Below are positions 1-42,220 of a stretch of 64,000 bases of DNA, in pieces. Made by a program: the position numbers and the translations under genes. The notes under the pieces are model-generated. The model saw nothing but the letters and a program-made list of their open reading frames with translations, was not told the origin of the DNA and did no database searches. Position 1 is the stretch's first letter; every line of letters starts with the position of its first letter. The stretch covers positions 99,908 to 163,907 of the forward strand of contig JAZUQR010000027.1 of NCBI GenBank assembly GCA_045605805.1. The letters are read 5' to 3'. This DNA comes from Alphaproteobacteria bacterium (GTDB lineage: Bacteria > Pseudomonadota > Alphaproteobacteria > CAAHEQ01 > UBA3637).

Positions 1-991
1 GCCCCATCGCATCATACATTTGCGAAGCAATCCGTATGGGTTGTTCCCCAAAAGCAGACTTATAATTTTGAGCAAAAGAATTAAAACCACTGGCATCCAA
101 ATCGGCAAAATAAACCCCATTAGCATTGGCATCATTGATAGATTTGACCACCGTCAAAGCATATAAAGGAATATCTTTTGGACCGGCATCATAAAAGGGC
201 ATCAAACTTAAAATCTGACGCAGTTTAACCCCTTCTTCAAAAATAAAAATAGCATCCAATCCAGCCCTCTCTGTCATTGGTTTGGCCAATTCCAACTGTT
301 CTTCTTCGGTTAAATCGGGCTTATCGGCATCAATTTCCTCAGGCAACAAGCGTTTCACAGCATTGGTAAAATTCATTGTTTCAGCATCATATAAAGAAAC
401 CTTTTCAGGGCGCATAGCCGGACAATCTGCCAAAGCGTCATTCAAAGCCTCTTTGGCAATCGCCCCAATCCGACTGTCCGAAGCCAATACCCCCAGTCTA
501 AATTGCCCAACAGCACAGGCATAGCGCACCATCTGACGCACCTGATCAGCCACTGTCACCGCCATTGTGCCCACCTTATCATTCACTAATTGTGTATCCG
601 AAGTAAAGGTCAACAACGGCACCGAAACACCACCGTCTTGAATAGCCGCCACTTCTTGTGAAAAAATAGGCCCTAAAACAACATCCGGTTTTTGGGCCAC
701 CGCCCAATCATAGGCCTGTTCCGCCCCTTTTTGTGTACTCATTGTATCAAAAAACAAAGTTTTCATTTTAACATCTTTATGGTCAAAAACGGCCTGTAAA
801 GCAGCATTTTGTAAATGCTTGCCCGCTTCGGCATATTCACCGGTCAACGGCAACACAATGGCCACAGTTGGCACAACCTGCTGTGACACAGAATCAGAAA
901 AAACACTTTCTTGCCAAAAAATGGGCTGACGCTGAACAGAACACGCCCCAAAAGCCACAAAACTTGTCAATAATAAAACTTTTTTTAACAT
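1..991 (-). CDS. LpoA/LppC-like periplasmic-binding-fold lipoprotein (penicillin-binding protein activator-like). The 3' end is truncated by the window edge.
   Basis: The minus-strand ORF starts with ATG at 991..989 and runs off the window start. Its N-terminus, MLKKVLLLTSFVAFGAC, is signal-peptide/lipobox-like. The body resembles Peripla_BP_6 / LpoA C-domain proteins. It sits divergent to rsmI-yraN, the arrangement seen at the E. coli lpoA/rsmI-yraN locus. It is not in the ORF track because it is open-ended. Confidence 0.5.
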   Translation of the reverse strand, partial: MLKKVLLLTSFVAFGACSVQRQPIFWQESVFSDSVSQQVVPTVAIVLPLTGEYAEAGKHLQNAALQAVFDHKDVKMKTLFFDTMSTQKGAEQAYDWAVAQKPDVVLGPIFSQEVAAIQDGGVSVPLLTFTSDTQLVNDKVGTMAVTVADQVRQMVRYACAVGQFRLGVLASDSRIGAIAKEALNDALADCPAMRPEKVSLYDAETMNFTNAVKRLLPEEIDADKPDLTEEEQLELAKPMTERAGLDAIFIFEEGVKLRQILSLMPFYDAGPKDIPLYALTVVKSINDANANGVYFADLDASGFNSFAQNYKSAFGEQPIRIASQMYDAMG

Positions 992-5161: not shown

Positions 5162-8100
5162 ATGAAGATTATAGACAAATACATTTTTCGGCAAACATTG
5201 GTTGGCTATCTGACAATTTTAATCAGTTTAACCGTCTTGATATGGTTGACACAATCCCTGCGCATGGTGGATATGATTGTCACCAAAGGGGTTTCTGTGG
5301 GTATTTTTTTGGAAATGACCCTTTTGGTGCTGCCAAACTTTTTACAAATTTTATCCCCCTTAGCCTTGTTTGGGGTAGCCTTGTTTGTGTTTATCCGCAT
5401 GCAATCGGACAAAGAACTGATTGTCTTAAAGGCTGTTGGCATGAACGCCAAACAATTGATAAAACCCTTGTTTATGTTAGGTGGTTTTTTGGTTTTCTTT
5501 GGCTATTTGCTCACCTTATGGGTGATTCCCGCCTCATATGCCCAACTGCGCCAAATGAAATGGAAAATACAAAACAATCTGTCTCACCTTTTGTTGCAAG
5601 AAGGGCAATTCAGCTCGTTCAAAAACGGCATGACATTATACATTCGGGAGCGAGAAGATGCCGGCAAAGTCAAAGGCATTCTGGCACATGAAATCAAAAA
5701 AGATAAAAAGTCTGTGCTTATTGCCGAAGAAGGCTCAATGATTCAAACCCCCGAAGGTATCAGTTTAACATTCAATAACGGCACCCGCCAAGAGTTTAAT
5801 ACAAAAACGAAAGAGTTTTCTATCTTAAAATTTGATAAGCATACCATGCTGTTTGAACATTCGGCAAACAAATCCAGCCGAAAAATAGACCCCCGTGAAA
5901 TGCCCTTAAAACAACTTATCCAAGCCCAACCAAATCAAGTAAAAGATGGCCCAACCTATCGCAAATATAAGGTAGAAGCCTTCAAACGCCTAACACAACC
6001 GCTGTACAATTTATTGTTTTTATGGTTGGCTGCCTTTGGTGTTTTAAGTGGTCATTATAACAGACGGGGTCAATCCCGCCAAATCAATGCTGTTGTCATT
6101 GCAGCTGTTTTAATTCAATCTTTATCATTGGCCTTTGAAAACATTGCCACACGCAACCTGTGGGGCATAAGTTTAATGGGATTCAACTTACTTATGCCAT
6201 TGGTAATTTTGTATTTTGTCTTATTCAAAGAACGCAAAATCGGTTGGATACATTTAATGTTGCTGCTCTCTTTAACAGGAATTGGGACAAACGCCTATGC
6301 CGGTCCGAAATTGGACTTACAAAATCATGATGCCAAGGCCCCTATTGATTTTGAAGCAGACAATATGGACTACAACATCAAAACAAACATTTTAACCGCA
6401 TCAGGGAATGTGGTTTTAACACAAAATCAAATGAATGTGCAAACACCAAAAATTATATACAACCAAGATACAGACGAGGTAAAAATCCCGCAAAAAACAA
6501 AAATTACCTTGCCAGACGGCACAAAATCAACCGTTCAAAATATGATGCTATACCCCAAAAAATCGGAAGCAACAGCCAACACCATCACCAGCATTTTAAC
6601 AGACGATTCCCGCATCACAGCCGAACAAATGATAAGCACCCAGAAGGGCGATATTATTTTGTTGAAAAACGCCACATACACGCCTTGCGATACATGTGAA
6701 GCCAAAGCCCCCCTGTGGCAAATTGAAGCCAAAGAAGTGAAACAAGATTTCACAGACCATACCCTATCTTATAAACATATGTTTTTGGATATAAAAGATA
6801 TCCCTGTGTTATACTTTCCTTACTTTCAAATGCCGGATGCAACCATCAAACGCAAATCAGGTTTTTTGAACCCCAGTATCCGCCATACAAGCGAAATGGG
6901 CCTGTCATTAGAAACACCTTTATTTGTGGATATAGCCGAAAATCAAAATCTGCTCATCACACCGGTGATTTCTGCCAAACACTTACCATTGGGGATTGTA
7001 AATTATAACGGCTTATTCACCAAAGGTATTCTGAATGTACAATTCAGCGGCACGCAAGATAAAGATAACGAAAACGAAGGTCACCTGAAAGCCAACTTTG
7101 AATATGATATGACACAAAACCTCCGTTTAACAGGGCAATACTTCCGCACGCTCAGCGACACCTATTTCCGCCGATATGATATTGAAGGCATCAATGATTC
7201 AGATTCTTTTTTGCGTTCTTATTTAACCGCTGAATACTTTGGCACGAGATTTTATACAAAAGCAAAAACATGGCATTTTCAAAGTCTGTTAAATGAAGTG
7301 AACAGCCGTTCGTTGCCTGTCATCATTCCAACTGTGGATATGCAGTACCACACCAAACCACTGTTTAATACCAATCTGTATGCCTTTACCAACATCAATA
7401 CCGCCTTATATAACACCCGCAACCATTTCAAATCTAACCGTCTGTCTTTAACGCAAGGATTTACCCTTCCCTATACCACTTCGTTTGGGTTGGTCACCGA
7501 AACAAAAGCAAGCCTGCGTTTTGATGGCTATGTGATAGACAGTGGCAAAGACAATCTGGTTTCCAAACATCCGGAAGACACCTATAACAAAGGACGCTTT
7601 ACCCCTATATTCAGCACAAAAATCAGTTATCCCTTGTTCACTACAACAAAGCAAACAACTCAAGTTTTGGAACCCATTATTATGATGGTGATGTCCCCCA
7701 ATACAAAGAACAGCCAAAACATTCCTAATTTAGACAGTACCGTCTTTAACTTTGACGATACCAACCTGTTTTCCGAAAACCGTTTTGCCGGCTATGACCG
7801 CATAGAAACAGGCACACGCATCAACTATGGTTTGCAATGGACAGCCTATCAAAATGATGCCAAAGACAGATCTTTATCCATCTTATTTGGCCAATCCTAT
7901 CGCTTGAACGAATCGGAAGAATTAAAAGATGTGATGGGATACAGCCACCACCTGTCCGACTATGTGGGAAACATTCAATTAAACTATCAACACCTGAATC
8001 TATACTATCGTTTCCGCTTAAATCGTGAAAACCTGTCCAAACGCAAAAATGACATTGGTTTTTCTGTGGGTGGCAACCCCTTGCGAGTTGGACTAAATTA

Positions 8101-8395
8101 TCTGTATCAAGGGGCATATACATTAGACAACAAACACTATGACGAAGAAAATGAAATTCGTTTTTGGGCGCAATCACAATTTCATAAAAACTGGCAAACA
8201 AGCGGTTATTACAGATACAACTTAAAAAAAGACGGAGGCCCTATTGAATATGGTGTTCAAATACGCTATGATAATGAATGTAGTGCCATCATATTTAATT
8301 TGGAAAAATCCTATACCAAAGACAGAAACTATAAAGGAAGCACCTCGTTTATGATAAAAGTACTTTTGAAAACCTTAGGAGGAATCGGTCAGTGA
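5162..8395 (+). CDS. lptD: LPS export permease LptF/LptG family (N-terminal ~365 aa) fused in frame to LPS-assembly protein LptD/OstA (C-terminal ~710 aa).
   Basis: The first ~365 aa form a YjgP/YjgQ-type permease (MKIIDKYIFRQTLVGYL..., six transmembrane segments). From around the ATG at 6257 (MLLLSLTGIGTNAYA, signal-peptide-like) the sequence is clearly LptD, with an OstA N-domain (NMDYNIKTNILTASGNVVLTQ) and the C-terminal beta-barrel. No stop codon separates the two parts, and the junction is in frame (1095 nt = 365 codons). Confidence 0.8.
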   Translation: MKIIDKYIFRQTLVGYLTILISLTVLIWLTQSLRMVDMIVTKGVSVGIFLEMTLLVLPNFLQILSPLALFGVALFVFIRMQSDKELIVLKAVGMNAKQLIKPLFMLGGFLVFFGYLLTLWVIPASYAQLRQMKWKIQNNLSHLLLQEGQFSSFKNGMTLYIREREDAGKVKGILAHEIKKDKKSVLIAEEGSMIQTPEGISLTFNNGTRQEFNTKTKEFSILKFDKHTMLFEHSANKSSRKIDPREMPLKQLIQAQPNQVKDGPTYRKYKVEAFKRLTQPLYNLLFLWLAAFGVLSGHYNRRGQSRQINAVVIAAVLIQSLSLAFENIATRNLWGISLMGFNLLMPLVILYFVLFKERKIGWIHLMLLLSLTGIGTNAYAGPKLDLQNHDAKAPIDFEADNMDYNIKTNILTASGNVVLTQNQMNVQTPKIIYNQDTDEVKIPQKTKITLPDGTKSTVQNMMLYPKKSEATANTITSILTDDSRITAEQMISTQKGDIILLKNATYTPCDTCEAKAPLWQIEAKEVKQDFTDHTLSYKHMFLDIKDIPVLYFPYFQMPDATIKRKSGFLNPSIRHTSEMGLSLETPLFVDIAENQNLLITPVISAKHLPLGIVNYNGLFTKGILNVQFSGTQDKDNENEGHLKANFEYDMTQNLRLTGQYFRTLSDTYFRRYDIEGINDSDSFLRSYLTAEYFGTRFYTKAKTWHFQSLLNEVNSRSLPVIIPTVDMQYHTKPLFNTNLYAFTNINTALYNTRNHFKSNRLSLTQGFTLPYTTSFGLVTETKASLRFDGYVIDSGKDNLVSKHPEDTYNKGRFTPIFSTKISYPLFTTTKQTTQVLEPIIMMVMSPNTKNSQNIPNLDSTVFNFDDTNLFSENRFAGYDRIETGTRINYGLQWTAYQNDAKDRSLSILFGQSYRLNESEELKDVMGYSHHLSDYVGNIQLNYQHLNLYYRFRLNRENLSKRKNDIGFSVGGNPLRVGLNYLYQGAYTLDNKHYDEENEIRFWAQSQFHKNWQTSGYYRYNLKKDGGPIEYGVQIRYDNECSAIIFNLEKSYTKDRNYKGSTSFMIKVLLKTLGGIGQ

Positions 8396-11254: not shown

Positions 11255-11731
11255 TTATTCTTTGGTAATAAATTCAGGTGGCACAATACCATCTTTCAGC
11301 ACAATCATATAATGTGGAATTTTGGTAAAAAAATAACCATTTCCAACTTTTTCCCATGGCAACCTTTCGTCCCACAAAATTTGTTGAGGGGTGATTTTTT
11401 CTAACTTTTTTCGCCCTGCACAACGGTAAATAGCCTTCACTAAACCCGCTTTTTGCAACGCTTCAAAATCAACGCTATACAAGCACCGATCTTTTTTAAA
11501 ATCGCCATAAAAACAACACGCTTTTGTCATTGGACTTGTCAGAACAGAAATGGCCCGACTGCGTCCAGGAAATCTCGTTTCTAAATATGCCAACACACCC
11601 TTTTTCGTTTTACTTTTTGCCCGACCAAAATAATGTGCCAGAGCTTCTCTAGGCGCCTTAATTGGTGCCCAAAGGCCCGTATTTAAAACATCTGCTTCCT
11701 TTGGCGCATAGTTATAAAGTTTACCCATCAC
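11255..11731 (-). CDS. hypothetical protein (158 aa), translationally coupled to lepA
   Basis: The ORF start overlaps the lepA stop (ATGA at 11728-11731). The protein has no signal peptide and is basic. I do not recognise a family. Confidence 0.4.
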
Positions 11732-13515
11732 TCTTCCCCGATTTTTAGGGCTTCAATAAAGGCATTTTGAGGGATTTCCACTTCACCGAATTGGCGCATA
11801 CGCTTTTTACCCTCTTTTTGTTTTTCAAGCAGTTTGCGCTTACGAGTAATATCGCCACCATAACATTTGGCTGTCACATCTTTGCGATAGGCCGAAATAT
11901 CCTCACGAGCAATAATCTTTCCGCCAATACTGGCCTGAATCGGAATCTTAAATTGATGGCGAGGAATCAAATCTTTCAATCTGGCACAAATTTGGCGTCC
12001 CCGTCTTTCGGCCTGCGAACGATGCACAAGGAAAGCCAAGGCATCTACTTGTTCTCCATGAACAAGGATATTCACCCGCACCAAATCACTGGCATGATAT
12101 TCATCAATATCATAATCAAAGCTGGCATACCCACGAGAGATAGATTTTAAGCGATCATAAAAATCAAAAACAATTTCATTCAAAGGCAAACGATAAACCG
12201 CCATTGCCCGATTCCCTACATAGGTTAAATCTAACTGTTCCCCTCGTCTTTCCGTACACAATTGCAAAATACTGCCCAAATACTCATCGGGGGTTAAAAT
12301 AGTGGCTTTCACCCAAGGCTCTTCAATTTTACGAATCGTTGTCACATCGGGCATATCAGCAGGATTGTGCATCACAAGCTCATCCCCATTTGTTTTATAC
12401 ACCTTATAGGCCACAGACGGAGCCGTTGTAATCAGATTCAAATCAAACTCACGGAATAAACGCTCTTGAATAATTTCCATATGCAAAAGCCCTAAAAAGC
12501 CACAACGAAATCCTTGTCCCAAAGCCATAGACTTATCCGGAGTAAATTGGAAACTGGCATCATTCAACTGTAATTTTTCAATAGCTTCTTTCAAAGCCTC
12601 ATAATCACTCATATCCACAGGAAACAACGAACAAAACACAACACTTTGGCTGGGCTTAAAGCCAGGCAAAACCTCGGCACAAGGTTTTTTCTCATGCGTA
12701 ATGGTATCCCCCACTTTTGTTTCACCAATAGACTTGATACCACAAATCACAAACCCAAGTTCCCCCGCAGATAAAGAATCACTATCTTGCATTTTTGGGG
12801 TAAAATAACCCAATCGTTCCACTGTGTAATTGGCCCCCGTGGACATAAATTGAATCATCTCATTTTTCTTCAAAACACCGTCCACAATACGCACCATCAC
12901 AACAATACCCAAATAAGGATCATACCAAGAATCCACTAACATGGCTTTCAAAGGATGATTGATATCCCCTTGCGGGGCCGGCAAGCGATTGACAATCACA
13001 TCCAAAACATCTTCAATGCCAATACCAGTTTTGGCCGAAATAAGCGGTGCATCGTGTGTATCCAAGCCAATCACATCTTCAATTTGCTGTTTCACCCGAT
13101 CCGCATCAGCCGCAGGCAAATCAATTTTGTTGATAACAGGCACAATTTCATGATTCGCATCCAAGGCTTTATACACATTGGCCAAGGTTTGGGCTTCCAC
13201 CCCTTGGGTAGCATCCACCACAAGCAACGACCCTTCACAAGCACTTAAACTTCGGCTGACTTCATAACCAAAGTCCACATGCCCTGGGGTATCAATCAAG
13301 TTCAAAATGTAATCCCCATACTTTAAACGAACCGTTTGGGCTTTAATGGTAATGCCCCTCTCTCGTTCAATATCCATATTGTCCAAAATCTGTGCCTTCA
13401 TTTCACGATCAGACACAGCCCCACATTTTTGAATCAACCTGTCCGCCAAAGTTGATTTACCATGATCAATGTGAGCCACAATAGAAAAATTACGAATATG
13501 AGATAAATCAGTCAT
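11728..13515 (-). CDS. lepA: elongation factor 4 (LepA)
   Basis: The sequence [21 protein letters not shown] and the full EF-G-like architecture with the LepA-specific C-terminus are present. The preferred start is the ATG at 13515 ([10 protein letters not shown]...), whereas the ORF track's 13551 start is a TTG. A TGTATAAT motif lies immediately upstream. Confidence 0.9.
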
Positions 13516-17333: not shown

Positions 17334-18779
17334 ATGGAAAACATCAATACAATTCAGGTTCAATGGGCCGAAATATGCGCACAATTGTCCCAAACGCTCA
17401 GCGACCGATTCGTGATGCGTTGGCTCAGCAAGGTTGTACCGGATAAAATTGAAAACAATCAGGTACACCTCATGGTATCCAGCCCCTGCATTCGTGAATT
17501 AATTGAACAAAACTATCTGTCCCATATTGCCTCGTTATGGAAAACAAAAAATACAAATATCCACACGGTCAGCCTGAAATTGAATCCAGACTTAAAGGAA
17601 AAAGCCCAAATGTCTGTTCAAATCAAAAAAGAAACACCGCAAACCGTGTCCCCCATTCAACAACCAACCGAATCAATAGCGGTTATCAAACCTCAAAATT
17701 TCACACCTAGCTATACGGCCATAACCCCCTCAGCTGTGACAGAGGAGATTCCTTGTTATTTGGATAAATCACACACCTTTGGAAACTTTGTTGTCGGCAA
17801 ATCAAACCAATTTGCCTATGCAGCCGCCAAAAAGATTGCCGAAGAAGACCATCCGGCCTTTAATCCGCTGTACTTCCACGCAGGTGTTGGCTTGGGTAAA
17901 ACCCACTTATTGCACGCCATTGCTTGGCGCATTAAAGAACGTCATCCGCAAAAGAGTGTATTATATTTATCATCTGAACAATTCTTTCAACGTTTTTTGC
18001 ACGATTTGAACACGAAAAATATGGATGGCTTTCGGGCGTTGGTTCGGTCCGTAGATGTTTTACTGATTGACGATATCCAATTTATTTTGGGCAAACAACG
18101 CACACAAGAAGAGTTTTTTCACACATTCAATGCTTTAATTGCTGAACAAAAAACAATCATTTTGTCGGCCGACTCTATGCCCAGTGCCTTACAAGGGATT
18201 GATGAAAAATTACGCACGCGTATTTCACAAGGATTGGTGGTGGATATTGCCCCGGCAGATGAAAACCTGCGACTCGGCATTTTGCAAGGCAAAAGCAAAG
18301 AAATGGGATCGGATATTCCGGATGATGTACTGGCATTTTTGGCCAAAAGCATCACCACAAATGTTCGTGAATTGGAGGGGGCATTAAAACGAGTCATTGC
18401 CCATGCCGAATTGATTGGCAACCCCATCAACATGGATACAACTCAAGAAGTGTTAAAAGATATCTTACACACCTATGAACGGCCGGTCAAAGCCCCCGAA
18501 ATTCAAAACTTTGTGGCACAATACTATCAAATCTCACTGGAAGATTTACAATCCACAAGAAGGGACCGTTCTTTTGCCCGTCCACGCCAAATTGCGATGT
18601 ACCTGACAAAAGTTTTAACGCCCCTATCTTTACCGGATATTGCCTTGTGTTTCAAACGAGATCATACCACAATTATCCATGCCGTTCGCACCATTGAAGG
18701 ATTGATTCAACAAGACAAGAAGTTGGCCCAACAAGTCAATGAAATCACCACAAAACTGAAAGCGGGAACAAATGTCTAA
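17334..18779 (+). CDS. dnaA: chromosomal replication initiator DnaA
   Basis: The protein has an AAA+ Walker A (GVGLGKTHLLHAIA), sensor motifs, and the C-terminal DNA-binding domain (IAMYLTKVLTPLSLPDIALCFKRDHTTIIHAV). Confidence 0.95.
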   Translation: MENINTIQVQWAEICAQLSQTLSDRFVMRWLSKVVPDKIENNQVHLMVSSPCIRELIEQNYLSHIASLWKTKNTNIHTVSLKLNPDLKEKAQMSVQIKKETPQTVSPIQQPTESIAVIKPQNFTPSYTAITPSAVTEEIPCYLDKSHTFGNFVVGKSNQFAYAAAKKIAEEDHPAFNPLYFHAGVGLGKTHLLHAIAWRIKERHPQKSVLYLSSEQFFQRFLHDLNTKNMDGFRALVRSVDVLLIDDIQFILGKQRTQEEFFHTFNALIAEQKTIILSADSMPSALQGIDEKLRTRISQGLVVDIAPADENLRLGILQGKSKEMGSDIPDDVLAFLAKSITTNVRELEGALKRVIAHAELIGNPINMDTTQEVLKDILHTYERPVKAPEIQNFVAQYYQISLEDLQSTRRDRSFARPRQIAMYLTKVLTPLSLPDIALCFKRDHTTIIHAVRTIEGLIQQDKKLAQQVNEITTKLKAGTNV

Positions 18780-19221
18780 TCTAACACCATTTAGCAATCC
18801 GTTTTTGGTTGGCTTTAACGAATTGGAACAAATGTTGCTCCGAGTCGCCAAAGGGGCCGATTCGTTTCCGCCGTATAATGTGGAACAAATCAACAACACC
18901 ACATTTGAAATTACAATGGCCGTGGCAGGTTATTCTGAATCAGATTTAGAATTGGTTCAAGAAGAGAACCAATTGATTATTCGGGGTCATCAAGAACACA
19001 ACCCGAATCGGCACTATTTACATCAAGGCATTGCTGCGCGCAGCTTTATAAAATCTTTTGTGCTGGCTGATGGAATGACCATTCAAGGGGCAGTACTAGA
19101 AAACGGACTGTTGATGATAACCTTGCAAAAACCGCAAAAAACACCTAATATAAAGAAAATAGAAATTAAAAAAACATCAAAAACTGTTCAACTGAATAAG
19201 AAAGGAGAAGCCGATGAATGA
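18772..19221 (+). CDS. Hsp20/alpha-crystallin family small heat-shock protein
   Basis: The alpha-crystallin domain contains NVEQINNTTFEITMAVAGYSESDLELVQEENQLIIRG. The start overlaps the dnaA stop by 8 nt. Confidence 0.85.
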   Translation: MSNLTPFSNPFLVGFNELEQMLLRVAKGADSFPPYNVEQINNTTFEITMAVAGYSESDLELVQEENQLIIRGHQEHNPNRHYLHQGIAARSFIKSFVLADGMTIQGAVLENGLLMITLQKPQKTPNIKKIEIKKTSKTVQLNKKGEADE

Positions 19222-19429
19222 AAAAATCACCATTACATTAGACAACTCCTTCTGTACCGAACAAGTCGGCCTAGATGAACAAGTATATATCAAAAAAGAA
19301 AAACAAAATAACGAATTGGTATGGGCAATATACAGCCCGGAAGGCGAAAGAATGGCTCAAACATTTTCAAAAGAAATGGCTTTGGCTATCGTCCGCCAAA
19401 ACGATTTAACAGCTTCTTATGTTCATTAA
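19214..19429 (+). CDS. DUF1150-family small protein (Hsp20 partner)
   Basis: The 71-aa ORF overlaps the hsp20 stop. An hsp20 followed by a DUF1150 gene is a conserved pair in alphaproteobacteria. Confidence 0.55.
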   Translation: MNEKITITLDNSFCTEQVGLDEQVYIKKEKQNNELVWAIYSPEGERMAQTFSKEMALAIVRQNDLTASYVH

Positions 19430-19541: not shown

Positions 19542-19632
19542 AAAGCCAAAATGGCGGATGGGAGAGGATTCGAACCTCCGTTAGGCTTTAGACCTAAACG
19601 CACTTTCCAGGCGCGCGCCTTCAACCACTCGG
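19542..19632 (-). tRNA. tRNA-Ser (anticodon GGA)
   Basis: The reverse complement folds as a cloverleaf. The acceptor stem is GGATGGG/CCCATCC, the D-arm GCCGAGTGGTTGAAGGC is Ser/Leu-type, the anticodon loop CTGGAAA gives anticodon GGA, and there is a long variable arm, a GGTTCGAATCC T-arm and an encoded CCA. Length is 91 nt. Confidence 0.85.
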
Positions 19633-19729
19633 CCACCCATCCACTTCAATGGAAAGTAAAGCAATTTTACCAAAAACAAAACAAAATGTCAAGAAAATAT
19701 ATCAATTCTCATTAAAACTTATTTGCTTA

Positions 19730-21073
19730 TCATACTTTTCTTGCCAAGAAATACCTATCTGTATCGGTGTTTTTAATATCTCGCCCACAATACCGTGCGC
19801 CTTCTTGGCATTTGCCACAAATAAAACAAGGAGGAGCCAACACCTTTAACAAAGTATCTGATTTTGGCAAACAGGCTAATACCTCTCTTAAAGCCACCGC
19901 CACATGATAGATTTCTTCTTGGGCACACCAACAAGAACGCTTGCCTTGCTCATGAATCAAAGCATTCAAATCAGCCATTTTTTGATAGCGCACCATCCCC
20001 CCATAAGGCGCAACAGCCTGAATCAAACCGGCCGGCACTTGGCCTTGAAAATCCAACCATTCCTGCATATACGCAAGCGCAATATCCGCCATACCGGCCT
20101 CTTGCAATAAAGGCGGCAAATAAAATGAATTGACAAACCAAGGGGTTGACCGTTTCACCGAACGATGCCGTTGATCTTGCCCATAGGTGGCACAAGAAAC
20201 TTGAACCTCTGTTTTGACAAAATGAACCGAGTTATTCATTGCCTGAGGATTAAAATACAAAGTATCCACACTGTCTTTACCGGCATCAGGATAAACTGAT
20301 TCATCCAAATCGGCCTCTAACAAATACACATCCGGCTTCTCCTCCACAACAGCCGTTCCTTCTTTAATCGGCAAATACCAATTTTGTTCCTGACGCATCA
20401 AAGGATTAAAAAAATCGGCCAATTCGGGATATTCTGCCACAACAGCATCCCGCATCATATCCACAATCAAGCGCATTTCACTGGTCCATGCGCTGCGCCA
20501 CAAAGCCGTTAAAGCCGACAAATTCAAGGTCATATCCAATGCCGTTGGCACAAGTTGAGAAATAAACATCCGTAGTTGTTCTTGAGCCAACTTGGGGGCA
20601 TTTATTTCTATATATTTATCATTCGCAAAAGGCCGTTCTGTCCGAATAGCCTTTTCGGCAAGCGGTATAATTTTTGGCAACCAGTCTTGATAAATCTGAA
20701 AACCTTTTTGAATCCAAGGCATTACCTTGTCAATATCCTCGTCACTGTAAAAAGGGGTTAAAAAGGAAGTCATTTTTTCAAAATCAGGTTCTTCATACAT
20801 TTTTGAAAAACGGCCCGACCGTTGATCAGAATTATAATAAGGGGCAGTCAAATGAAGCCCAAAGACCACGGCCGACACAGGAATGTCTTTCAAAGAAAAA
20901 GTAAAATGCGTATGTTGTAAAGTGGTATGATGGCCCGAATCAAACAAACGCCCCTTCACATCAATCGGCTTGTCAATCAAAACTGGGTCCAAAGTATAAC
21001 ACACCCGTGCAGCATGAGACGCCAAATCCAATGGTTTTTTGTCGGACTTTGCCAAAAGTTTAATCTGCATCAT
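19730..21073 (-). CDS. thyX: flavin-dependent thymidylate synthase ThyX, tandem (pseudo-dimeric) two-domain form
   Basis: The N-terminal half aligns to ThyX (LLAKSD..AARVCY, SGHHTTLQHTHFTF), but the RHR motif is replaced by LHL. The C-terminal half is a second ThyX-like unit that retains RHR (QDQRHRSVKRS) and the flavin-region motif (CAQEEIYHVAVALREVL). Total length is 447 aa. Confidence 0.6.
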   Translation of the reverse strand: MMQIKLLAKSDKKPLDLASHAARVCYTLDPVLIDKPIDVKGRLFDSGHHTTLQHTHFTFSLKDIPVSAVVFGLHLTAPYYNSDQRSGRFSKMYEEPDFEKMTSFLTPFYSDEDIDKVMPWIQKGFQIYQDWLPKIIPLAEKAIRTERPFANDKYIEINAPKLAQEQLRMFISQLVPTALDMTLNLSALTALWRSAWTSEMRLIVDMMRDAVVAEYPELADFFNPLMRQEQNWYLPIKEGTAVVEEKPDVYLLEADLDESVYPDAGKDSVDTLYFNPQAMNNSVHFVKTEVQVSCATYGQDQRHRSVKRSTPWFVNSFYLPPLLQEAGMADIALAYMQEWLDFQGQVPAGLIQAVAPYGGMVRYQKMADLNALIHEQGKRSCWCAQEEIYHVAVALREVLACLPKSDTLLKVLAPPCFICGKCQEGARYCGRDIKNTDTDRYFLARKV

Positions 21074-21126
21074 TTTCTCCTTTTGTTTTCTTTAAGCATA
21101 CAAAAACACAAAGAAGATAGCAACAC

Positions 21127-22950
21127 TTATTTTAACAAAAGGGCCATCAATTTTTCCGTCCACAAAGCCGGATCTTTAATCGGTTCCCCCTCAATCACAA
21201 GGGTTTGATTAAACAACACAAGGATATAATCTGTTGGATCCTCCATCTGGGCCATCTTGGCAATCACAGGATGATGTGGATTCAATTGTAAAATCCGATC
21301 CGAAGCAAACACAGTCTGTTGGCCATGCGCCCGCATCAAGCGTTCCATATTCAAAGTCATCTGTCCCGCCCCCGTCACCAAAGCCATCGGGCTTTTTGTT
21401 AAGCGGTCGGTCACTTGAATATCCTTCACTTGATCCCCTAAAACAGCCTTCATTTTTTCAATTAAAGCATCCATCTGGGGTTGTGGCACAGCCTCTGTGG
21501 ATAAATCCACCTTTTGAATCTTGTCCAATTCATCCCCTGCCTGTTGAACCGACACAAACTTCTTTCCCTGATACTCAGGATAGGTATTTGTCCAAAACTC
21601 GTCAATCGGATCTGTCAATAATAACACCTCAATACCCCGAGCCATAAAGCCTTCTAATTGAGGATTTTGACGCAAAGTCGCCAAATCAGAACCAGTTAAA
21701 TAATAAATAGAGTCTTGTCCGTTTTTCATCCGACCCACATAATCGGCAAGCGAAACAACCCCCTCTCCTTGGGTGGAATAAAACCGACACAGTTCGGCCA
21801 CTTCATCTCGTTGAGCAGAAGGTTCATATAACCCCTCTTTCAACACAATACCAAAAGCATCCCAAAACACTTGATATTCTTGTGGATTTTCTGCCCGTTT
21901 TTTCAAAGCATTCAAAATCTTTGTAGAAAGGCCTTGCTTGATTTTGGCCATCACAGGGGTTTGTTGCAACATCTCCCGACTAACATTCAAGGGCAAATCT
22001 TTGGTATCAATCACCCCCGTCACAAAGCGCAACCAATAGGGCAACAATTCCGGCACATCTGATGAAATAAACACTTTATTCACATACAAACTTAAACCCG
22101 ATGGCCGATCTGGTTGAAACAAATTGACCGGAGGTTTTGTCGGTACAAAAACCAAAGCGGTATAATCAATCACACCCTCGGCATGGAAATGAAGCGTTTC
22201 CCAAGGCGTATCCAGCGCATGAGCCACGGTCTGATAAAAATCCTTATACTGCGTTTCTGTAATTTCAGATTTAGAACGCATCCACAAAGCCGAACCGGCA
22301 TTCACCACATCTTCTTTGCCTTCGTTGCACAACGCAATGGGTACATTCACAAAATCGCTGTATTGTTTAATCAATTGACGCACCCGAAATGGGTCAAGGT
22401 ATTCTTCTGCATCTTCCCTTAAAAATAAAGTCACTCGTGTGCCTTGGGATACATCCGCTGCCTCACTTACCTCAAACGAACCGGCCCCATCACTTTCCCA
22501 AAGCCATCCTTGCGTTTCACCGGCTTTTCTGGAATAAACCTGAACCTTACTGGCCACCATAAAGCTGGCATAAAAGCCAACACCAAATTGGCCAATCAAA
22601 GCCATATCTTTTTGTTTATCCCCCGAAAGAGCTTGAACAAACTCGCTGGAACCGGAACGGGCAATTGTTCCCAGATGATTGATTAAATCTTCCCGATTCA
22701 TCCCAATGCCATTATCTGCCACTGTCAAAGTTTTCAATGTTTTGTTCAACTCCACCCGAATCTTAAACGGTTCAGGCTTTGCCAAGTCTGGATGCAACAT
22801 CTGCTCATAGCGCAACTTGTCACACGCATCAGAGGCGTTGGAAATCAATTCCCGCAAAAAAATCTCTTTGTTGGAATATAGACTGTGAATAACAATATCC
22901 AACACCTTTGCCACTTCGGCCTTAAATTCAATTTTCTGTGTATCTGTCAT
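21127..22950 (-). CDS. htpG: molecular chaperone HtpG (Hsp90)
   Basis: The sequence MTDTQKIEFKAEVAKVLDIVIHSLYSNKEIFLRELISNASDACDKLRY is the GHKL ATPase N-terminus. The start at 22950 has a GGAG ribosome-binding site 7 nt upstream. The ORF track's extension to 23184 has no ribosome-binding site. Confidence 0.9.
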   Translation of the reverse strand: MTDTQKIEFKAEVAKVLDIVIHSLYSNKEIFLRELISNASDACDKLRYEQMLHPDLAKPEPFKIRVELNKTLKTLTVADNGIGMNREDLINHLGTIARSGSSEFVQALSGDKQKDMALIGQFGVGFYASFMVASKVQVYSRKAGETQGWLWESDGAGSFEVSEAADVSQGTRVTLFLREDAEEYLDPFRVRQLIKQYSDFVNVPIALCNEGKEDVVNAGSALWMRSKSEITETQYKDFYQTVAHALDTPWETLHFHAEGVIDYTALVFVPTKPPVNLFQPDRPSGLSLYVNKVFISSDVPELLPYWLRFVTGVIDTKDLPLNVSREMLQQTPVMAKIKQGLSTKILNALKKRAENPQEYQVFWDAFGIVLKEGLYEPSAQRDEVAELCRFYSTQGEGVVSLADYVGRMKNGQDSIYYLTGSDLATLRQNPQLEGFMARGIEVLLLTDPIDEFWTNTYPEYQGKKFVSVQQAGDELDKIQKVDLSTEAVPQPQMDALIEKMKAVLGDQVKDIQVTDRLTKSPMALVTGAGQMTLNMERLMRAHGQQTVFASDRILQLNPHHPVIAKMAQMEDPTDYILVLFNQTLVIEGEPIKDPALWTEKLMALLLK

Positions 22951-23175
22951 GTTGTTCTCCTTCTTTTGCATAAGAATATAGTCACTCTTTTGATAAAACG
23001 CAAGACACCCCCATTTTTTTAAGGACTCCTCTCTTGTAATTATTTGACAAAACAGCCATGCGCACAATTTGCGAATAATAAAAAGCCAAAAACATTTTGA
23101 AAAAACAACTTTTTCCTTGCAAAAAACACAAAAAAAAGCTATAATATATCCCACTGTTTTGCGAAAGGAATTAAA

Positions 23176-23688
23176 ATGGCTCAAAATTCAACAAAAACAT
23201 CCGATAAAATATTACAAGAAATTTTTCAACCTGCCTCTTATGTCAATGGTTGTTTTGTACAACAACCTGCTTTTGAAAAAGCAACACAAACACCTGATTC
23301 AACCATTAATACAATCAAATTTATGAAACAACACATTTCGGGCAAAGAGTTTGAAATTCACCGCAACAACTATCTTCGTGGTTCTTTATACGCAATTCAA
23401 AAACATCAATTTGATGCAAAACACACTGATTTTTTGGCTGACACAGTAAATTGGTTTATCCAAAAAAAACCAAGTCCTCACTCACAAACATACCATACAT
23501 TGTTAAAACTTTTAATAGAACAAATCAACCAAAAAGTTAAGATACCCCAAGAAAAACAACAACAATGGACAAACGCTTTAACACGCAAATCCCCGATTTG
23601 CATTCCAAATGATATTGGTTTAATTCCCGAAAATGCCGTTGAACCATCATTTACATTTGTAAAACATTTTTCAAAAAGATCAAGATAA
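23176..23688 (+). CDS. hypothetical protein (170 aa)
   Basis: The ORF lies between the divergent htpG promoter region and mipZ. It has an AAGGAA ribosome-binding site and no recognisable domain. Confidence 0.35.
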   Translation: MAQNSTKTSDKILQEIFQPASYVNGCFVQQPAFEKATQTPDSTINTIKFMKQHISGKEFEIHRNNYLRGSLYAIQKHQFDAKHTDFLADTVNWFIQKKPSPHSQTYHTLLKLLIEQINQKVKIPQEKQQQWTNALTRKSPICIPNDIGLIPENAVEPSFTFVKHFSKRSR

Positions 23689-36402: not shown

Positions 36403-36822
36403 ATGATACAACGCACATTTTCAATTATAAAACCTAACGCCACCGCCCGCCATTTGGAAAATGAAATCAACGAAAAAATCCAACAGGCAGGCTTAAAAAT
36501 TATCGCATCCAAGCGCATTGAACACCCCACAAAAGAACAGTTTGAACAATTCTATGCCGAACACAAAGGCAAACCGTTTTATGAAGGCTTGTTGGATTTT
36601 ATGACCTCTGGCCCCATCGTGGTTCAGGTATTGGAAGCCGAAGAGGCCATCCAACGCTATCGCACTTTAATGGGAAATAAAGATCCGGCCGAAGCAGACG
36701 AAGGCACATTACGCAAACTGTATGCCGAAAGCAAAACAAAAAATTCGGTTCATGGGTCTGACTCACCCGAAAGTGCTGCCCGAGAAATTGCCTTGTGGTT
36801 CACCGAAGACGAATTAAAATAA
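36403..36822 (+). CDS. ndk: nucleoside diphosphate kinase
   Basis: The sequence TFSIIKPNA and the NSVHGSDS active-site histidine region match Ndk. An AAAGGAG ribosome-binding site is present. Upstream there is a candidate promoter, TTGACA (36348-36353), an 18-nt spacer, and TATGAT. Confidence 0.9.
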
Positions 36823-36842
36823 CCGTTCAGCGAGGGGCAACA

Positions 36843-39131
36843 GTGACACACAGAAGCAAATCAGCCCAATCCGGTCGCACCATGTTGGAAATCATCTCTG
36901 TCATGGCTATGATCGGCGTGCTGACAATCGGTTCTATTGCCTTTTATCGTTTTGTGATGAACTATCAACAAAGCAAAGCCCTTTATAACGATTTCAAAGT
37001 GCGTTCCGCCTTAAATATGGAAGGCAAAGGGCGTATTTTTTCCACCGATATGGAAAACAAATCAACCTATGACAAAGAAATGACGGTTGCACAAAATTTC
37101 CCCCAGTATGGTTTTTTCAAGATAACCGCCCAAGGTGTTGAACAGGCGATATGTAAAAGGCTGATAAAAGAAGAATGGCCCGAACACAGCCGGATTTATT
37201 TGGATGACAAACCATTTGGCTCGGCCATTACCGAATGTCCCCAAAAAGATGTCGCCTTTTCCGTTGTCTATCGTTCCACCCGCACCCGCCAAGAATTGCC
37301 CCCACTTTGTACACCCGATAGCACCTGTGAAGGCTGTACCTCATGTCAAAATGGCGAATGCCGTGCGGGTTGCTCATCGGGTAATGTGTGTTATGATAAC
37401 GCCTGCGTGGTTGGTTCATGCACATCCCAAGAAGACGGCACAGAATTGTGTTGCCCTGCAACACCGAAATACTGTCCGTTGAATGCACAAATAAGTGGCA
37501 ACCAAACCTCCTGTGCATGCGAATGCCCCTCTCACCGCACACAAAGTGGCGGGATATGCGGTGATTGTCATTTTGACAGCGAGTTTGAACCATTTATTGT
37601 ACCACAATTCACACAAAACACCAAAGCAGGCTATGGCACCTTACAAACCGATTACTATTCAATCAACAGCGCAGATGAAGATGCATGGCGGGCTTTTGAT
37701 GGGGATAAAACCAAACACTTTCTGTGGGTTGGCAACTATAGTTATGTTATATGGCATTTGCCACAACCAGTTCGGGTAAAATCCACAACAATTTGGCAAA
37801 ATTTAATTGATCCGGCAAAAGATAGATTTCCAAGAATAATCACCTTGTATGGTTCTAATGATAAAAACAATTGGACAACCTTGGGAACAATAACAAATCA
37901 AACAATTCCTCCTGAATATGTAAAACTTCAAACCGATGCCTCCCAACAGTGGACCAGCTTGAAATGGGAGTTTAATGACAATTTTGGCGGATGGTATGAA
38001 CAAGTCGGCGAAATTGAAATGGAAGCCGAAATACTGGCTTCAAGTTCAAACTATACTTTTGATACAAACACATTCCAATGCACAAAAGCACGCACCGAAA
38101 AAGAAGGGGAACCATGTCACCCATCTAACGCAGGCCGAACTGCTTGCAATCAATCCGAGGGCATATTGTATAAATGTACAGGTGGAACATTACAAGTACT
38201 CTACACATGCAATGCATCAAATCCCACAAATATTGAAAGTTTACAACAACCGAATATCTGCCCAGAAGTAGGAAATGAGTGTTTTATAAATGAGACACAA
38301 GGGATTTGTTTGGGCGAAGAAGGGAACTTACAATGCTGTGCCGGAGCAATCAATTTAGAAACAAACACTGTTTCTGAAACATGTTGCAACGAAGCTGTTT
38401 ATAACACAGCATTCTCAGGGGATTATTATGTCTACAGCTATCTTGAAGACAATATGGATGTCCCATCTGGAAACACAACTTTTTCAACATACATCAACGG
38501 CACCCCACTTGACTTTGGCTTATGTTGTTTTAATGCCATTGATTTGGTCACAGGCACAACCGATGAACGATGTGGTCAAGCAACAGCCGAAAAAATGAAT
38601 CAATGGACAAGCAGCTATCTGATATACGGTATGTCTAATGGTGAATTTTGCTATGGTCCAACCAATTTAAGCTACAAAGAACCAACCAGCACGCAACAAT
38701 GTTGTGATTTTGTCAAAGAAGATTTCCAATATATGCCTGATCCGCCATCAGTGACTTGGGTTGAAACAGAATGGGGATACAATTTCTGTTGTCAAGGCCC
38801 ATTTGATGCTTCATGTCCAGACTGTGGCATGACTGAAGACTGCTGCAAAAGCGCAGGCGGAACAATGGGAAGTGATTGGTGGAGCTGTTGTAAAGGCGCA
38901 GAAGACCTTGCTAATCCCGAATATGATTCATATACCTGTTGTTCGGATGTTGGGGGAGAAATGAGAACAGTAGAAGATTACTTTAACTACGGATACGAAT
39001 GGGATATGTATGATGTTTGTTTTAATCCAACAACCAATTGCCCCATTTCTCAATTTGCCTGTGAACGCTTCAGCGACAGGTATAATTGTCAATGGAACAA
39101 TGAAAATCAATCTTGCGAACCAATCTTATAA
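36843..39131 (+). CDS. large cysteine-rich secreted protein with a prepilin-type N-terminal domain and a discoidin/F5/8-type-C-like lectin domain (putative modular type IV pilin / pseudopilin-like adhesin)
   Basis: A GTG start at 36843 has a GAGGGG ribosome-binding site. The short basic leader VTHRSKSAQSG is followed by RTMLEIISVMAMIGVLTIGSIAF, the class III signal / prepilin methylation-domain pattern with Glu at +5. The rest has dozens of Cys in EGF-like spacing (CEGCTSCQNGECRAGC...CACECPSH...) and many NxS/T sequons. A central ~150-aa segment (DAWRAFDGDKTKHFLWVGNYSYVIWHLPQPVRV...RFPRIITLYGSNDKNNWTTLG) resembles F5/8 type C galactose-binding domains. Confidence 0.55.
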   Translation: MTHRSKSAQSGRTMLEIISVMAMIGVLTIGSIAFYRFVMNYQQSKALYNDFKVRSALNMEGKGRIFSTDMENKSTYDKEMTVAQNFPQYGFFKITAQGVEQAICKRLIKEEWPEHSRIYLDDKPFGSAITECPQKDVAFSVVYRSTRTRQELPPLCTPDSTCEGCTSCQNGECRAGCSSGNVCYDNACVVGSCTSQEDGTELCCPATPKYCPLNAQISGNQTSCACECPSHRTQSGGICGDCHFDSEFEPFIVPQFTQNTKAGYGTLQTDYYSINSADEDAWRAFDGDKTKHFLWVGNYSYVIWHLPQPVRVKSTTIWQNLIDPAKDRFPRIITLYGSNDKNNWTTLGTITNQTIPPEYVKLQTDASQQWTSLKWEFNDNFGGWYEQVGEIEMEAEILASSSNYTFDTNTFQCTKARTEKEGEPCHPSNAGRTACNQSEGILYKCTGGTLQVLYTCNASNPTNIESLQQPNICPEVGNECFINETQGICLGEEGNLQCCAGAINLETNTVSETCCNEAVYNTAFSGDYYVYSYLEDNMDVPSGNTTFSTYINGTPLDFGLCCFNAIDLVTGTTDERCGQATAEKMNQWTSSYLIYGMSNGEFCYGPTNLSYKEPTSTQQCCDFVKEDFQYMPDPPSVTWVETEWGYNFCCQGPFDASCPDCGMTEDCCKSAGGTMGSDWWSCCKGAEDLANPEYDSYTCCSDVGGEMRTVEDYFNYGYEWDMYDVCFNPTTNCPISQFACERFSDRYNCQWNNENQSCEPIL

Positions 39132-40472: not shown

Positions 40473-42220
40473 AGTTCTTCAAAAAAAACCCAACCTCTTT
40501 TTATGCACCGTGCCAAGAAATCCCAACACCAAAACGGGAAAAGGAACGCTATCTGGATGCGGCCACACAAAAAAGCCTGCGCACCGCCAAGAACCGCATT
40601 TTGATTATCGGTTTGGCTTTTTTATCCTTGCTGTTTATCATTTGGGGCCGGCTGTTTTATCTGACGGTTTTAAGCTACGACAAAACCCCCATCAAAACAT
40701 CCCAATGGGATACAGACGAAAAACTGCCCCGCTATAACATTGTGGACAGAAACGGCGTGGTATTGGCCACCACACTCACCTCGTGGGATATATCCGTCAA
40801 TCCTAAAAAAGTGGAAAATCCCGAAGAAGTCGCCAAAAAAATACACGAAAAATTGCCCGATTTACAGGAAAAAGAATTGCTTCAAAAACTCACTTCAAAA
40901 AGCAATTTCAAATACATCAAACGAGGCGCAACGCCCAAAGAATTGGAAGCTGTCAATTGGCTTGGCTATCACTTTTTAACCTATGAAGCCGTCAATACCC
41001 GAGCCTACCCACAAGGCCCTTTATTTTCGCATATACTGGGAGGTGTCAACATTGATAATGTGGGCATATCAGGCATAGAAAAAGCCTTTGATAACGAATT
41101 AAAAAAAGCGCAACTGCAACTCTCACTAGATACTTCTGTACAAGAAGCCGTACGAAGCAACCTTTTGAAAAGTATAGAAAAATTCAAAGCAGAAGGGGCT
41201 TTTGGCTTGGTAATGGACATTCACACAGGGGAATTATTGGCAAGCGTTTCTCTGCCTGATTATGATCCGGAAAAACCAGTTGGTAAAGACCCTTCTGTAC
41301 GCTTTAATATGCCCACATTGGGGGTTTATGAATTCGGTTCTGTCTTAAAATTATTCAACACAGCCATGGCATTGGAAAACAAAATCATCAAAGAAACAGA
41401 CATCATAGATGCCTCTGCGCCATTAAAAATCGGGCGCAAACAAATTGAAGATTTTCGGGGGCAAAACCGCCCACTCAGCACCACCGAAGTCTTGATGCAT
41501 TCGTCTAACATTGCCTCGGCCAAAATTGCTTTGCAGGCAGGCTATGAAAAACAACGGGAGTTTTTACAACGCTTTCACTTATTTGATAAATTATCCATAC
41601 CTTTACCCGAACGAGGTACGCCCATTTACAACACAAAAGAAAAATGGGCGGATATAGAAACGGCCAATGTGGCTTTTGGCTATGGTCTGGCCACAACCGC
41701 CCTACATCTGGCAGCCGGAGTATCAGCTTTAACAAACGGTGGATTTTATAATGTACCGACTTTCCTAAAAGAAGGAAACAAAAACAAACCAACAACAAAA
41801 GTCTTAGATACCGACATATCCCAAAAACTGCGTCATATGATGTGGGCCGTTTTGAATTGGGATATTTGGACAAAGAATGTGGCCAAACACTATGCCGTTG
41901 GGGGCAAAACAGGCACAGCAAACATCAAAGAACAAGGCGGTTATAATACCGATAAAATTCGGGCCTCCTTTGTGGGCGTTTTTCCAATTGATAACCCGCA
42001 ATATCTTGTCCAAGTCACCTTACTCAATCCACAAAGATTAAAAGAAACCTTGATGTTGAATAATGCCGGATGGAACGCCCGCCCCACCGGATTAAATATC
42101 ATCAGCGAAATTGCCCCTTATCTGAATGTGGCTCCTGTCACCGACTATCAACCACCGGAATATGTCCAACAGGCCATTGAAACTTCTTTAATTAAAAACA
42201 AAAGGAAAAAAGCACAATGA
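40469..42220 (+). CDS. ftsI: peptidoglycan D,D-transpeptidase FtsI (PBP3)
   Basis: The protein has an N-terminal transmembrane anchor and a PBP dimerisation domain. The transpeptidase motifs are present, SVLK (SxxK), SSN and KTGT. Confidence 0.9.
   Translation: MKFFKKNPTSFYAPCQEIPTPKREKERYLDAATQKSLRTAKNRILIIGLAFLSLLFIIWGRLFYLTVLSYDKTPIKTSQWDTDEKLPRYNIVDRNGVVLATTLTSWDISVNPKKVENPEEVAKKIHEKLPDLQEKELLQKLTSKSNFKYIKRGATPKELEAVNWLGYHFLTYEAVNTRAYPQGPLFSHILGGVNIDNVGISGIEKAFDNELKKAQLQLSLDTSVQEAVRSNLLKSIEKFKAEGAFGLVMDIHTGELLASVSLPDYDPEKPVGKDPSVRFNMPTLGVYEFGSVLKLFNTAMALENKIIKETDIIDASAPLKIGRKQIEDFRGQNRPLSTTEVLMHSSNIASAKIALQAGYEKQREFLQRFHLFDKLSIPLPERGTPIYNTKEKWADIETANVAFGYGLATTALHLAAGVSALTNGGFYNVPTFLKEGNKNKPTTKVLDTDISQKLRHMMWAVLNWDIWTKNVAKHYAVGGKTGTANIKEQGGYNTDKIRASFVGVFPIDNPQYLVQVTLLNPQRLKETLMLNNAGWNARPTGLNIISEIAPYLNVAPVTDYQPPEYVQQAIETSLIKNKRKKAQ

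Follow-up and report, generated by a model that had tools for sequence, protein, structure and literature searches.

A tandem ThyX protein whose active-site residues are divided between two units

The DNA analysed here is a 64,000-nucleotide (64-kb) stretch of an alphaproteobacterial genome (contig JAZUQR010000027.1, positions 99,908 to 163,907), referred to throughout as the window. On its minus strand, 53 nt downstream of the end of htpG, which lies on the same strand, an open reading frame (ORF) of 447 amino acids (aa) plus a stop codon encodes two successive units of the flavin-dependent thymidylate synthase ThyX (Table 1). ThyX is an antibacterial drug target, and to our knowledge everything understood of its structure and mechanism was learned from single-domain homotetramers, in which the four sites are identical. 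Judging from its residue pattern, the tandem protein is probably a genuine flavin-dependent thymidylate synthase, pseudo-dimeric and made of units that are degenerate in complementary ways. In the full-text literature that we searched, no description was found of the tandem ThyX architecture, of the complementary degeneration or of the predicted metal site that accompanies them.

Table 1 Features of the tandem thyX gene, in window coordinates
Feature	Residues (aa)	Position	Strand	Basis or remark
Tandem thyX ORF		19730..21073	-	ORF listing; Pfam Thy1 in two stretches; AlphaFold; Foldseek
GGAG ribosome-binding site		21077..21080	-	Read from sequence; 4 nt from the ATG at 21073 (7 nt counted from the first G)
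Unit 1, full-length ThyX fold with dUMP-side residues, lacking both RHR arginines	1-228	20390..21073	-	
GHHTTLQH	47-54	20912..20935	-	T. maritima G52-H59 (hhalign)
LHL, in the place of RHR	73-75	20849..20857	-	T. maritima R78-H79-R80
DQRSGRFSKMY, dUMP-phosphate loop	83-93	20795..20827	-	Alignments to T. maritima
R168	168	20570..20572	-	T. maritima Arg147 by motif alignment
Inter-unit linker	~229-240	20354..20389	-	Coil in model, poorly conserved
Unit 2, trimmed ThyX fold with FAD-side residues	241-405	19859..20353	-	
RHR, ThyX signature	302-304	20162..20170	-	Aligned to RHR of solved ThyX
KRSCWCAQEEI	378-388	19910..19942	-	Alignments to solved ThyX
C-terminal extension	406-447	19733..19858	-	Carries C416, C422 and C429 in PPC-x5-C-x-EG-x-R-Y-C-G-R; lacking in canonical ThyX
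Cys-rich tail segment, CFICGKCQEGARYC	416-429		-	Read from sequence

Two ThyX folds in one chain

The Pfam Thy1 profile (PF02511), whose cut-off (gathering score) is 24.8 bits, matched the whole protein in two stretches with a score of 65.6 bits. Taken alone, the N-terminal half scored 48.7 bits (E value 1e-12) over profile positions 5-190 of 191, while the C-terminal half reached 20.8 bits (E value 3.6e-4) over positions 62-185, under the cut-off. An earlier reading of this DNA, made from the sequence without database searches (the sequence-only reading), had proposed two ThyX-like units in the 447-aa frame, both expected to match Thy1; the two units are borne out, and Thy1 recognises the N half by itself, but for the C half it is fold and profile comparisons that establish the unit.

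Unit 1 aligned with Thermotoga maritima ThyX at an hhalign probability of 94% (E value 1.5e-7). For the C half, a profile built from 20 such halves, drawn from both clades of the family described below, matched the solved ThyX chains of Corynebacterium glutamicum (E value 2.2e-6), Thermus thermophilus (3e-4) and Mycobacterium tuberculosis (3.7e-4), with RHR falling on RHR in the alignments. When the C half was modelled by itself with AlphaFold (predicted local distance difference test, pLDDT, 85.4), the model matched T. maritima ThyX structures with an E value of 1.9e-7 and template modelling (TM) scores of 0.52-0.57 over 200-239 columns. The full-length model (pLDDT 91.5; predicted TM score, pTM, 0.90) matched M. 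tuberculosis ThyX with an E value of 3e-6, and the 50 Foldseek matches listed for it belong exclusively to the ThyX family, being either ThyX or the ThyX-like methylase PolB. Both units have the ThyX fold, the same fold as in the canonical enzymes of T. maritima (TM0449, PDB 1O26 and 4GT9) and M. tuberculosis (Rv2754c, PDB 2AF6 and 3GWC). The T. thermophilus enzyme (Thy1, PDB 6J61) is a ThyX with an extra C-terminal domain as well, but it has one ThyX unit in 270 aa, with an intact RHR...SGRY, and none of the tandem class's cysteine set in the aligned part.

Between the two halves themselves, sequence similarity was undetectable by blastp (E value 1.8) and hhalign (E value 0.2); we rejected an internal sequence repeat, the duplication being visible through profiles and fold only, and the duplication must be ancient because the halves have diverged to this extent. 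In the full-length model the linker is a coil between a helix ending at aa 221 and a strand starting at aa 242. The contiguous signature RHRx7S(xR) is absent from either unit and is present only as a composite of both. Against the NCBIfam thyX equivalog model TIGR02170 the whole protein scored 36.1 bits, short of the trusted cut-off of 87.9, and no dedicated NCBIfam model for the tandem class was matched; the class merits a profile of its own.

A widespread tandem class

A sequence search with the protein returned 585 matches, outlining a family of about 443-465 aa. Nearly all of the best 120 of these aligned over their full length, and they are named flavin adenine dinucleotide (FAD)-dependent thymidylate synthase, from Alphaproteobacteria or 'Rickettsiales' metagenome-assembled genomes (MAGs). 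Scanning one genome per species, we confirmed 137 loci, the nearest of which (73-74% identity) lie in gut and rumen Alphaproteobacteria MAGs, followed by Candidatus Enterousia; at 40-45% identity stand bacteria of the candidate phyla radiation (CPR), including Moranbacteria, Portnoybacteria, Campbellbacteria, Magasanikbacteria, Saccharibacteria and other Parcubacteria. A profile search of 1.84 billion cluster representatives gave 1254 at E ≤ 0.001 and 138 at E ≤ 1e-30, the latter being clusters at 50% identity.

Below this core family we found a second set of 480-560 aa with the same two-unit plan, and a profile of this long clade brought in another 2259 proteins, about 513-537 aa in length, with members in Ardenticatena maritima (Chloroflexi), Candidatus Chrysopegis kryptomonas, Omnitrophica and one Woesearchaeota archaeon. 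The short clade (~445 aa) is found in gut Alphaproteobacteria and CPR bacteria and the long clade (~520 aa) in Chloroflexi, Omnitrophica and archaea, together thousands of sequences, all automatically named ThyX. Tandem ThyX is a very common class and not peculiar to the source genome, and the rarity that the sequence-only reading had implied does not survive the match and cluster counts of these searches. In phages, a tblastn search of 50,697 records gave no match.

Several cluster representatives, some about 209 and others about 240 aa long, start or end near profile position 207, which made them candidates for a split-gene intermediate. This was ruled out in the two that we checked: P0215 starts at a contig edge, and P0190 proved to be a tandem gene whose reading frame is interrupted by a TAA and then goes on unshifted. 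Stop-codon recoding of the CPR type was rejected for P0190, the stop being TAA and not TGA. At locus L085 (630-1314) a tandem thyX is cut by an in-frame TAA and the same frame continues, the mark of a broken gene or of a sequencing error and not of a split ThyX.

The class may also include a protein already studied at the bench. The ThyX of Chlamydia trachomatis, CT632, reportedly has about 529 aa, twice the canonical length (characterised by Griffin et al. 2005, J Biol Chem). This size would match the long clade, which is carried by Omnitrophica, a phylum related to Chlamydiae (the Planctomycetes-Verrucomicrobia-Chlamydiae, PVC, group), and CT632 is a candidate for membership only; if it does belong there, activity of the class has already been demonstrated. 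Chlamydial ThyX proteins had too little sequence identity to be included in the original phylogeny (PMC6171736).

Active-site residues, assembly and the cysteine set

As the numbering reference we used the T. maritima TM0449 sequence, which is identical to that of PDB 1KQ4, and conservation was counted over 348 tandem proteins of full length, of which 183 belong to the short clade and 165 to the long. In the canonical site, with ligand origins listed for M. tuberculosis and Helicobacter pylori ThyX, subunit A binds its FAD through RHR, a ligand of the FAD phosphate and ribityl, and the first Arg together with Arg199 (T. maritima Arg174) also touches deoxyuridine monophosphate (dUMP); subunit B supplies Arg190 and Ser71 (T. 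maritima Thr55), the latter binding the FAD phosphate; and subunit C supplies Arg87, the Gln103 backbone, Ser105, Arg107 and Tyr108 (the last three being T. maritima Ser88, Arg90 and Tyr91) (PMC6514825).

Unit 1 has LHL in the place of RHR; its central H74 is kept in 347 of the 348 proteins, and Arg does not figure among the residues listed as commonest at position 73 or position 75. H48 corresponds to T. maritima His53 and is invariant, and T50 corresponds to Thr55 and to M. tuberculosis Ser71, with Thr or Ser in 347/348; in the same alignment H54 falls on H59 and H49 on E54. After an insertion of two or three residues, S86-G87-R88-F89 matches T. maritima S88-G89-R90-Y91, and both S86 and R88 are present in all 348 proteins. 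So is R168, which we matched to Arg147 by aligning 'AQEQLRMF' with 'PREVARIV' by eye; Arg147 has a role at the dUMP phosphate.

Unit 2 carries the RHR signature, with R302 and R304 invariant and H303 kept in 346 proteins, and R379, equivalent to T. maritima Arg174 and again invariant, after which C381 stands at the position of Asp176, C383 at that of His178 and AQEEI at A179-I183. Following its RHR the sequence runs S-V-K-R-S-T-P-W-F: the Ser-Gly-Arg loop is absent, and the unit also lacks the GHxT motif and equivalents of Arg147, Ser88/Arg90 and His53/Thr55. LHL in unit 1, and RHR with AQEEI and a Cys-rich tail in unit 2, had been read correctly from the sequence alone.

Across the two units the FAD and dUMP ligand set is complete, with R302, H303, R304 and R379 in unit 2 and H48, T50, S86, R88, F89 and R168 in unit 1, every member being at least 99% conserved. 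Mapped in this way, the losses of the units are complementary, unit 1 having kept the dUMP side and unit 2 the FAD side. The ligands are those of canonical ThyX (RHR and Arg174 for FAD; Ser88, Arg90, Tyr/Phe91, Arg147 and His53/Thr55 for dUMP), but in the tandem protein they are split over two non-identical units, one with xHx and the other without the Ser-Gly-Arg loop, half of the sites are predicted to be dead, and a C-terminal extension and four cysteines have been added.

A further arginine of the dUMP side has moved within unit 1. Arg occurs at position 66 or at position 85 and never at both: 194 of the 348 proteins have V/I66 with R85, 145 have R66 with a residue other than Arg at 85, and about nine have neither. 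The long clade keeps Arg66, of the M. tuberculosis Arg87 type, and the short clade has V/I66 with a new, invariant R85, a clade-specific extra arginine in the dUMP loop. The arginine has been relocated and not lost, so selection for substrate binding acts on unit 1. In other respects the long clade (for example A. maritima ARMA_1839 and Woesearchaeota RME53089.1) shares the architecture, the losses, the cysteines and the C-EG-R-F/Y-CG tail of the window protein, but it differs in having H-S-H or L-H-S for LHL, Arg66 within 'ISR' in place of R85 and N at the position of C383; the N-terminal part of its unit 2 is longer, and in the C half its identity to the window protein is only about 20-27%.

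Set against the canonical site, unit 2 holds exactly the residues of subunit A, and unit 1 exactly those of subunits B and C. Unit 2 (R302-H303-R304, R379 and AQEEI) would then be able to play role A only, and unit 1 (H48/T50, S86-G87-R88-F89 and R168) roles B and C only. By the symmetry of the canonical tetramer, two polypeptides would form a pseudo-tetramer with the unit-2 copies at the diagonal A/D places and the unit-1 copies at the B/C places. Such an assembly would have two complete active sites, with one FAD per chain, and two dead pockets, from which RHR, the Thr55-type residue and the Ser-Arg loop would all be missing together. The predicted reaction is the conversion of dUMP, with methylenetetrahydrofolate (CH2-THF) and a reductant, to deoxythymidine monophosphate (dTMP), and the class would have arisen by an ancient duplication and fusion followed by subfunctionalisation of a homo-oligomer.

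The Cys-rich tail had been noted in the sequence-only reading, which did not recognise that its cysteines form a set with C381 or that this set is near-invariant. C416, C422 and C429 are present in all 348 proteins of both clades and C381 in 347, and the motif C-x-E-G-x-R-F/Y-C-G around them is nearly as constant (E424 in 347, G425 in 340 and R427 in 336). The spacing is C-x27-38-C-x4-11-C-x6-C, without CxxC knuckles, and the C422-x6-C429 interval does not vary in any of the listed spacing classes, which cover about 315 of 349 sequences. C381 lies two residues past R379, beside the flavin-region helix. A fifth cysteine, C383, is mostly confined to the short clade (139/183, as against 7/165 in the long clade). 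No Pfam domain was found in the C-terminal tail, which is modelled by AlphaFold with a pLDDT of 80-90.

The obvious reading is that the four cysteines form a metal site, which we infer from their conservation: they may bind a structural zinc or an iron-sulfur (Fe-S) cluster and tie the extension to the R379 loop. We consider it an even call whether the metal is structural zinc only, stapling the extension in place with no redox role. Four near-invariant cysteines with a fixed C-x6-C pair would suit zinc; the lack of CxxC knuckles and the position of C381, so close to R379 and adjoining the flavin-region helix, speak against it, as does the fact that many of the host groups named here are anaerobes. 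Also on the side of zinc, the Chlamydia enzyme, perhaps a long-clade member, was reportedly active with NADPH after aerobic purification. Alternatively, a redox-active Fe-S cluster might sit by the flavin and allow reduction by ferredoxin or flavodoxin instead of, or besides, NADPH, making the protein an anaerobe-adapted half-of-sites enzyme in CPR bacteria, DPANN-type small-genome archaea, gut Alphaproteobacteria and possibly Chlamydia; we put this forward as a speculative and rather unlikely proposal. Re-reduction of the flavin by NADPH is not fully elucidated in ThyX, and a redox cluster would bear on that question (PMC6514825).

A large class, ranging over gut and rumen Alphaproteobacteria, CPR bacteria, small-genome archaea, Chloroflexi, Omnitrophica and perhaps Chlamydiae, appears to use a fused, heterodimer-like chain with only two complete sites and, at the active-site loop, an invariant set of four cysteines predicted to bind a metal. 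Nature has in this way run an experiment on how a homo-oligomer subfunctionalises, one that directly tests which subunit supplies what to catalysis.

Gene context and alternative readings

The immediate neighbours of the tandem thyX in the window are htpG, hsp20 and a tRNA-Ser gene, and its association with the dTMP pathway is seen in relatives. Among 80 loci, thymidylate kinase is present in 15 and dCMP deaminase in 14, in CPR relatives, mostly within about 700 nt and confirmed with Pfam. One long-clade gene on an archaeal-type contig is flanked by dUTPase/DCD, and on another such contig a dCMP deaminase fusion, an HD hydrolase and a thymidylate kinase flank the gene. Pathway neighbours of this kind are shared with canonical ThyX. 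Because the syntenic genes make dUMP and consume dTMP, the tandem class is best understood as a thymidylate synthase, and the synteny supports real thymidylate synthesis over recruitment to another function.

In 18 of the 80 loci (L027, L028, L032, L037, L038, L041, L042, L046 and others, for example L068 at 11404-11817) there is also a protein of about 135 aa without a Pfam match, whose gene starts 3-13 nt past the tandem thyX stop in the eight loci with a cleanly measured gap. It carries the motifs FHxxRRAF...PRGY...GELCxYxG...YLGVRVG and is absent from the window.

Several points weigh against the tandem protein being a working synthase of the proposed kind. By itself the C unit falls short of the Thy1 cut-off, and the whole protein falls short of the thyX equivalog cut-off. 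On the supporting side, searches of the 64-kb window with E. coli ThyA, E. coli FolA and T. maritima ThyX as tblastn queries gave no thyA, folA or second thyX, and folD is present there; this absence covers the window only, and another synthase may lie elsewhere in the genome. The relocation of the dUMP-side arginine tracks the split between the clades and may be a single event. Finally, a genome that carries the tandem gene can have another candidate synthase: in the MAG Candidatus Moraniibacteriota BF4_177 (locus L051, 6446-10091), the tandem thyX and tmk have just upstream of them folA and a thyA whose product shares 61% identity with E. coli ThyA. That locus is a dTMP-synthesis neighbourhood, and it looks like an acquired thyA-folA cassette beside a resident thyX.

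The sequence-only reading had left a fused dimer and a recruited paralog side by side; the complementary residues and the synteny with tmk, dCMP deaminase and dut favour the fused dimer, and recruitment gained no support. A recruited paralog would carry out another reaction, such as C5-modification of UMP/dUMP or dCMP in the manner of PolB, or nucleic-acid methylation, and the degeneration of unit 1 would then reflect a changed substrate. The equivalog score, the lack of the contiguous RHRx7S in both units and the thyA-folA pair adjoining one relative could be read in this way, as could the PolB structures among the fold matches; PolB (PDB 4P5B), a UMP/dUMP methylase of polyoxin biosynthesis, has the ThyX fold. 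However, PolB matches rank no better than true ThyX matches, PolB is single-domain with a chain of about 235 residues, and the window gene does not lie in a biosynthetic cluster. The canonical dUMP and FAD ligands are all present and invariant across the two units, the synteny is one of dUMP supply and dTMP use, and the class is widespread in much reduced genomes of CPR bacteria and of archaea such as Woesearchaeota. On this evidence we regard recruitment as very unlikely.

It is similarly improbable that unit 2 alone is catalytic, in a monomer or a non-canonical arrangement of the site, with unit 1 as a structural or regulatory scaffold: both RHR arginines have been lost from unit 1 and the AlphaFold monomer is confidently packed on its own, but the substrate-side residues missing from unit 2 are kept at 100% in unit 1, where the further Arg was moved and not lost, and in a dead scaffold the residues of the substrate loop would not stay so strictly conserved.

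Around the tandem thyX, no terminator-like site was found between htpG and the gene, and heat-shock genes flank it on both sides (window 17334-19429 and 21127-23184). The strand opposite to thyX carries hsp20 (18772-19221), which at its start overlaps the end of dnaA, and, at 19214-19429, a DUF1150 gene. Directly downstream of the tandem gene lies tRNA-Ser(GGA) (19552-19642, minus strand), preceded by a promoter-like site at 19692..19664, TTGACA-17-TAAAAT with a TG extension, which is the best sigma-70-like match of the region.

Elsewhere in the window, a 1077-aa ORF (5162-8395, plus strand) combines, by Pfam, an LptF/LptG permease (aa 6-351) with LptD_N and LptD (aa 398-1011), an inner-membrane/outer-membrane Lpt fusion that appears unusual. 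ORFs of 170 aa (23176-23688, plus strand) and 158 aa (11255-11731, minus strand) have no Pfam match, and neither does a very Cys-rich protein of 778 aa with a pilin-like hydrophobic N-terminal segment (36795-39131, plus strand). Within the dcw cluster, a 929-aa ORF (42217-45006, plus strand) contains two complete sets of Mur-ligase domains by Pfam and is apparently a MurE-MurF fusion.

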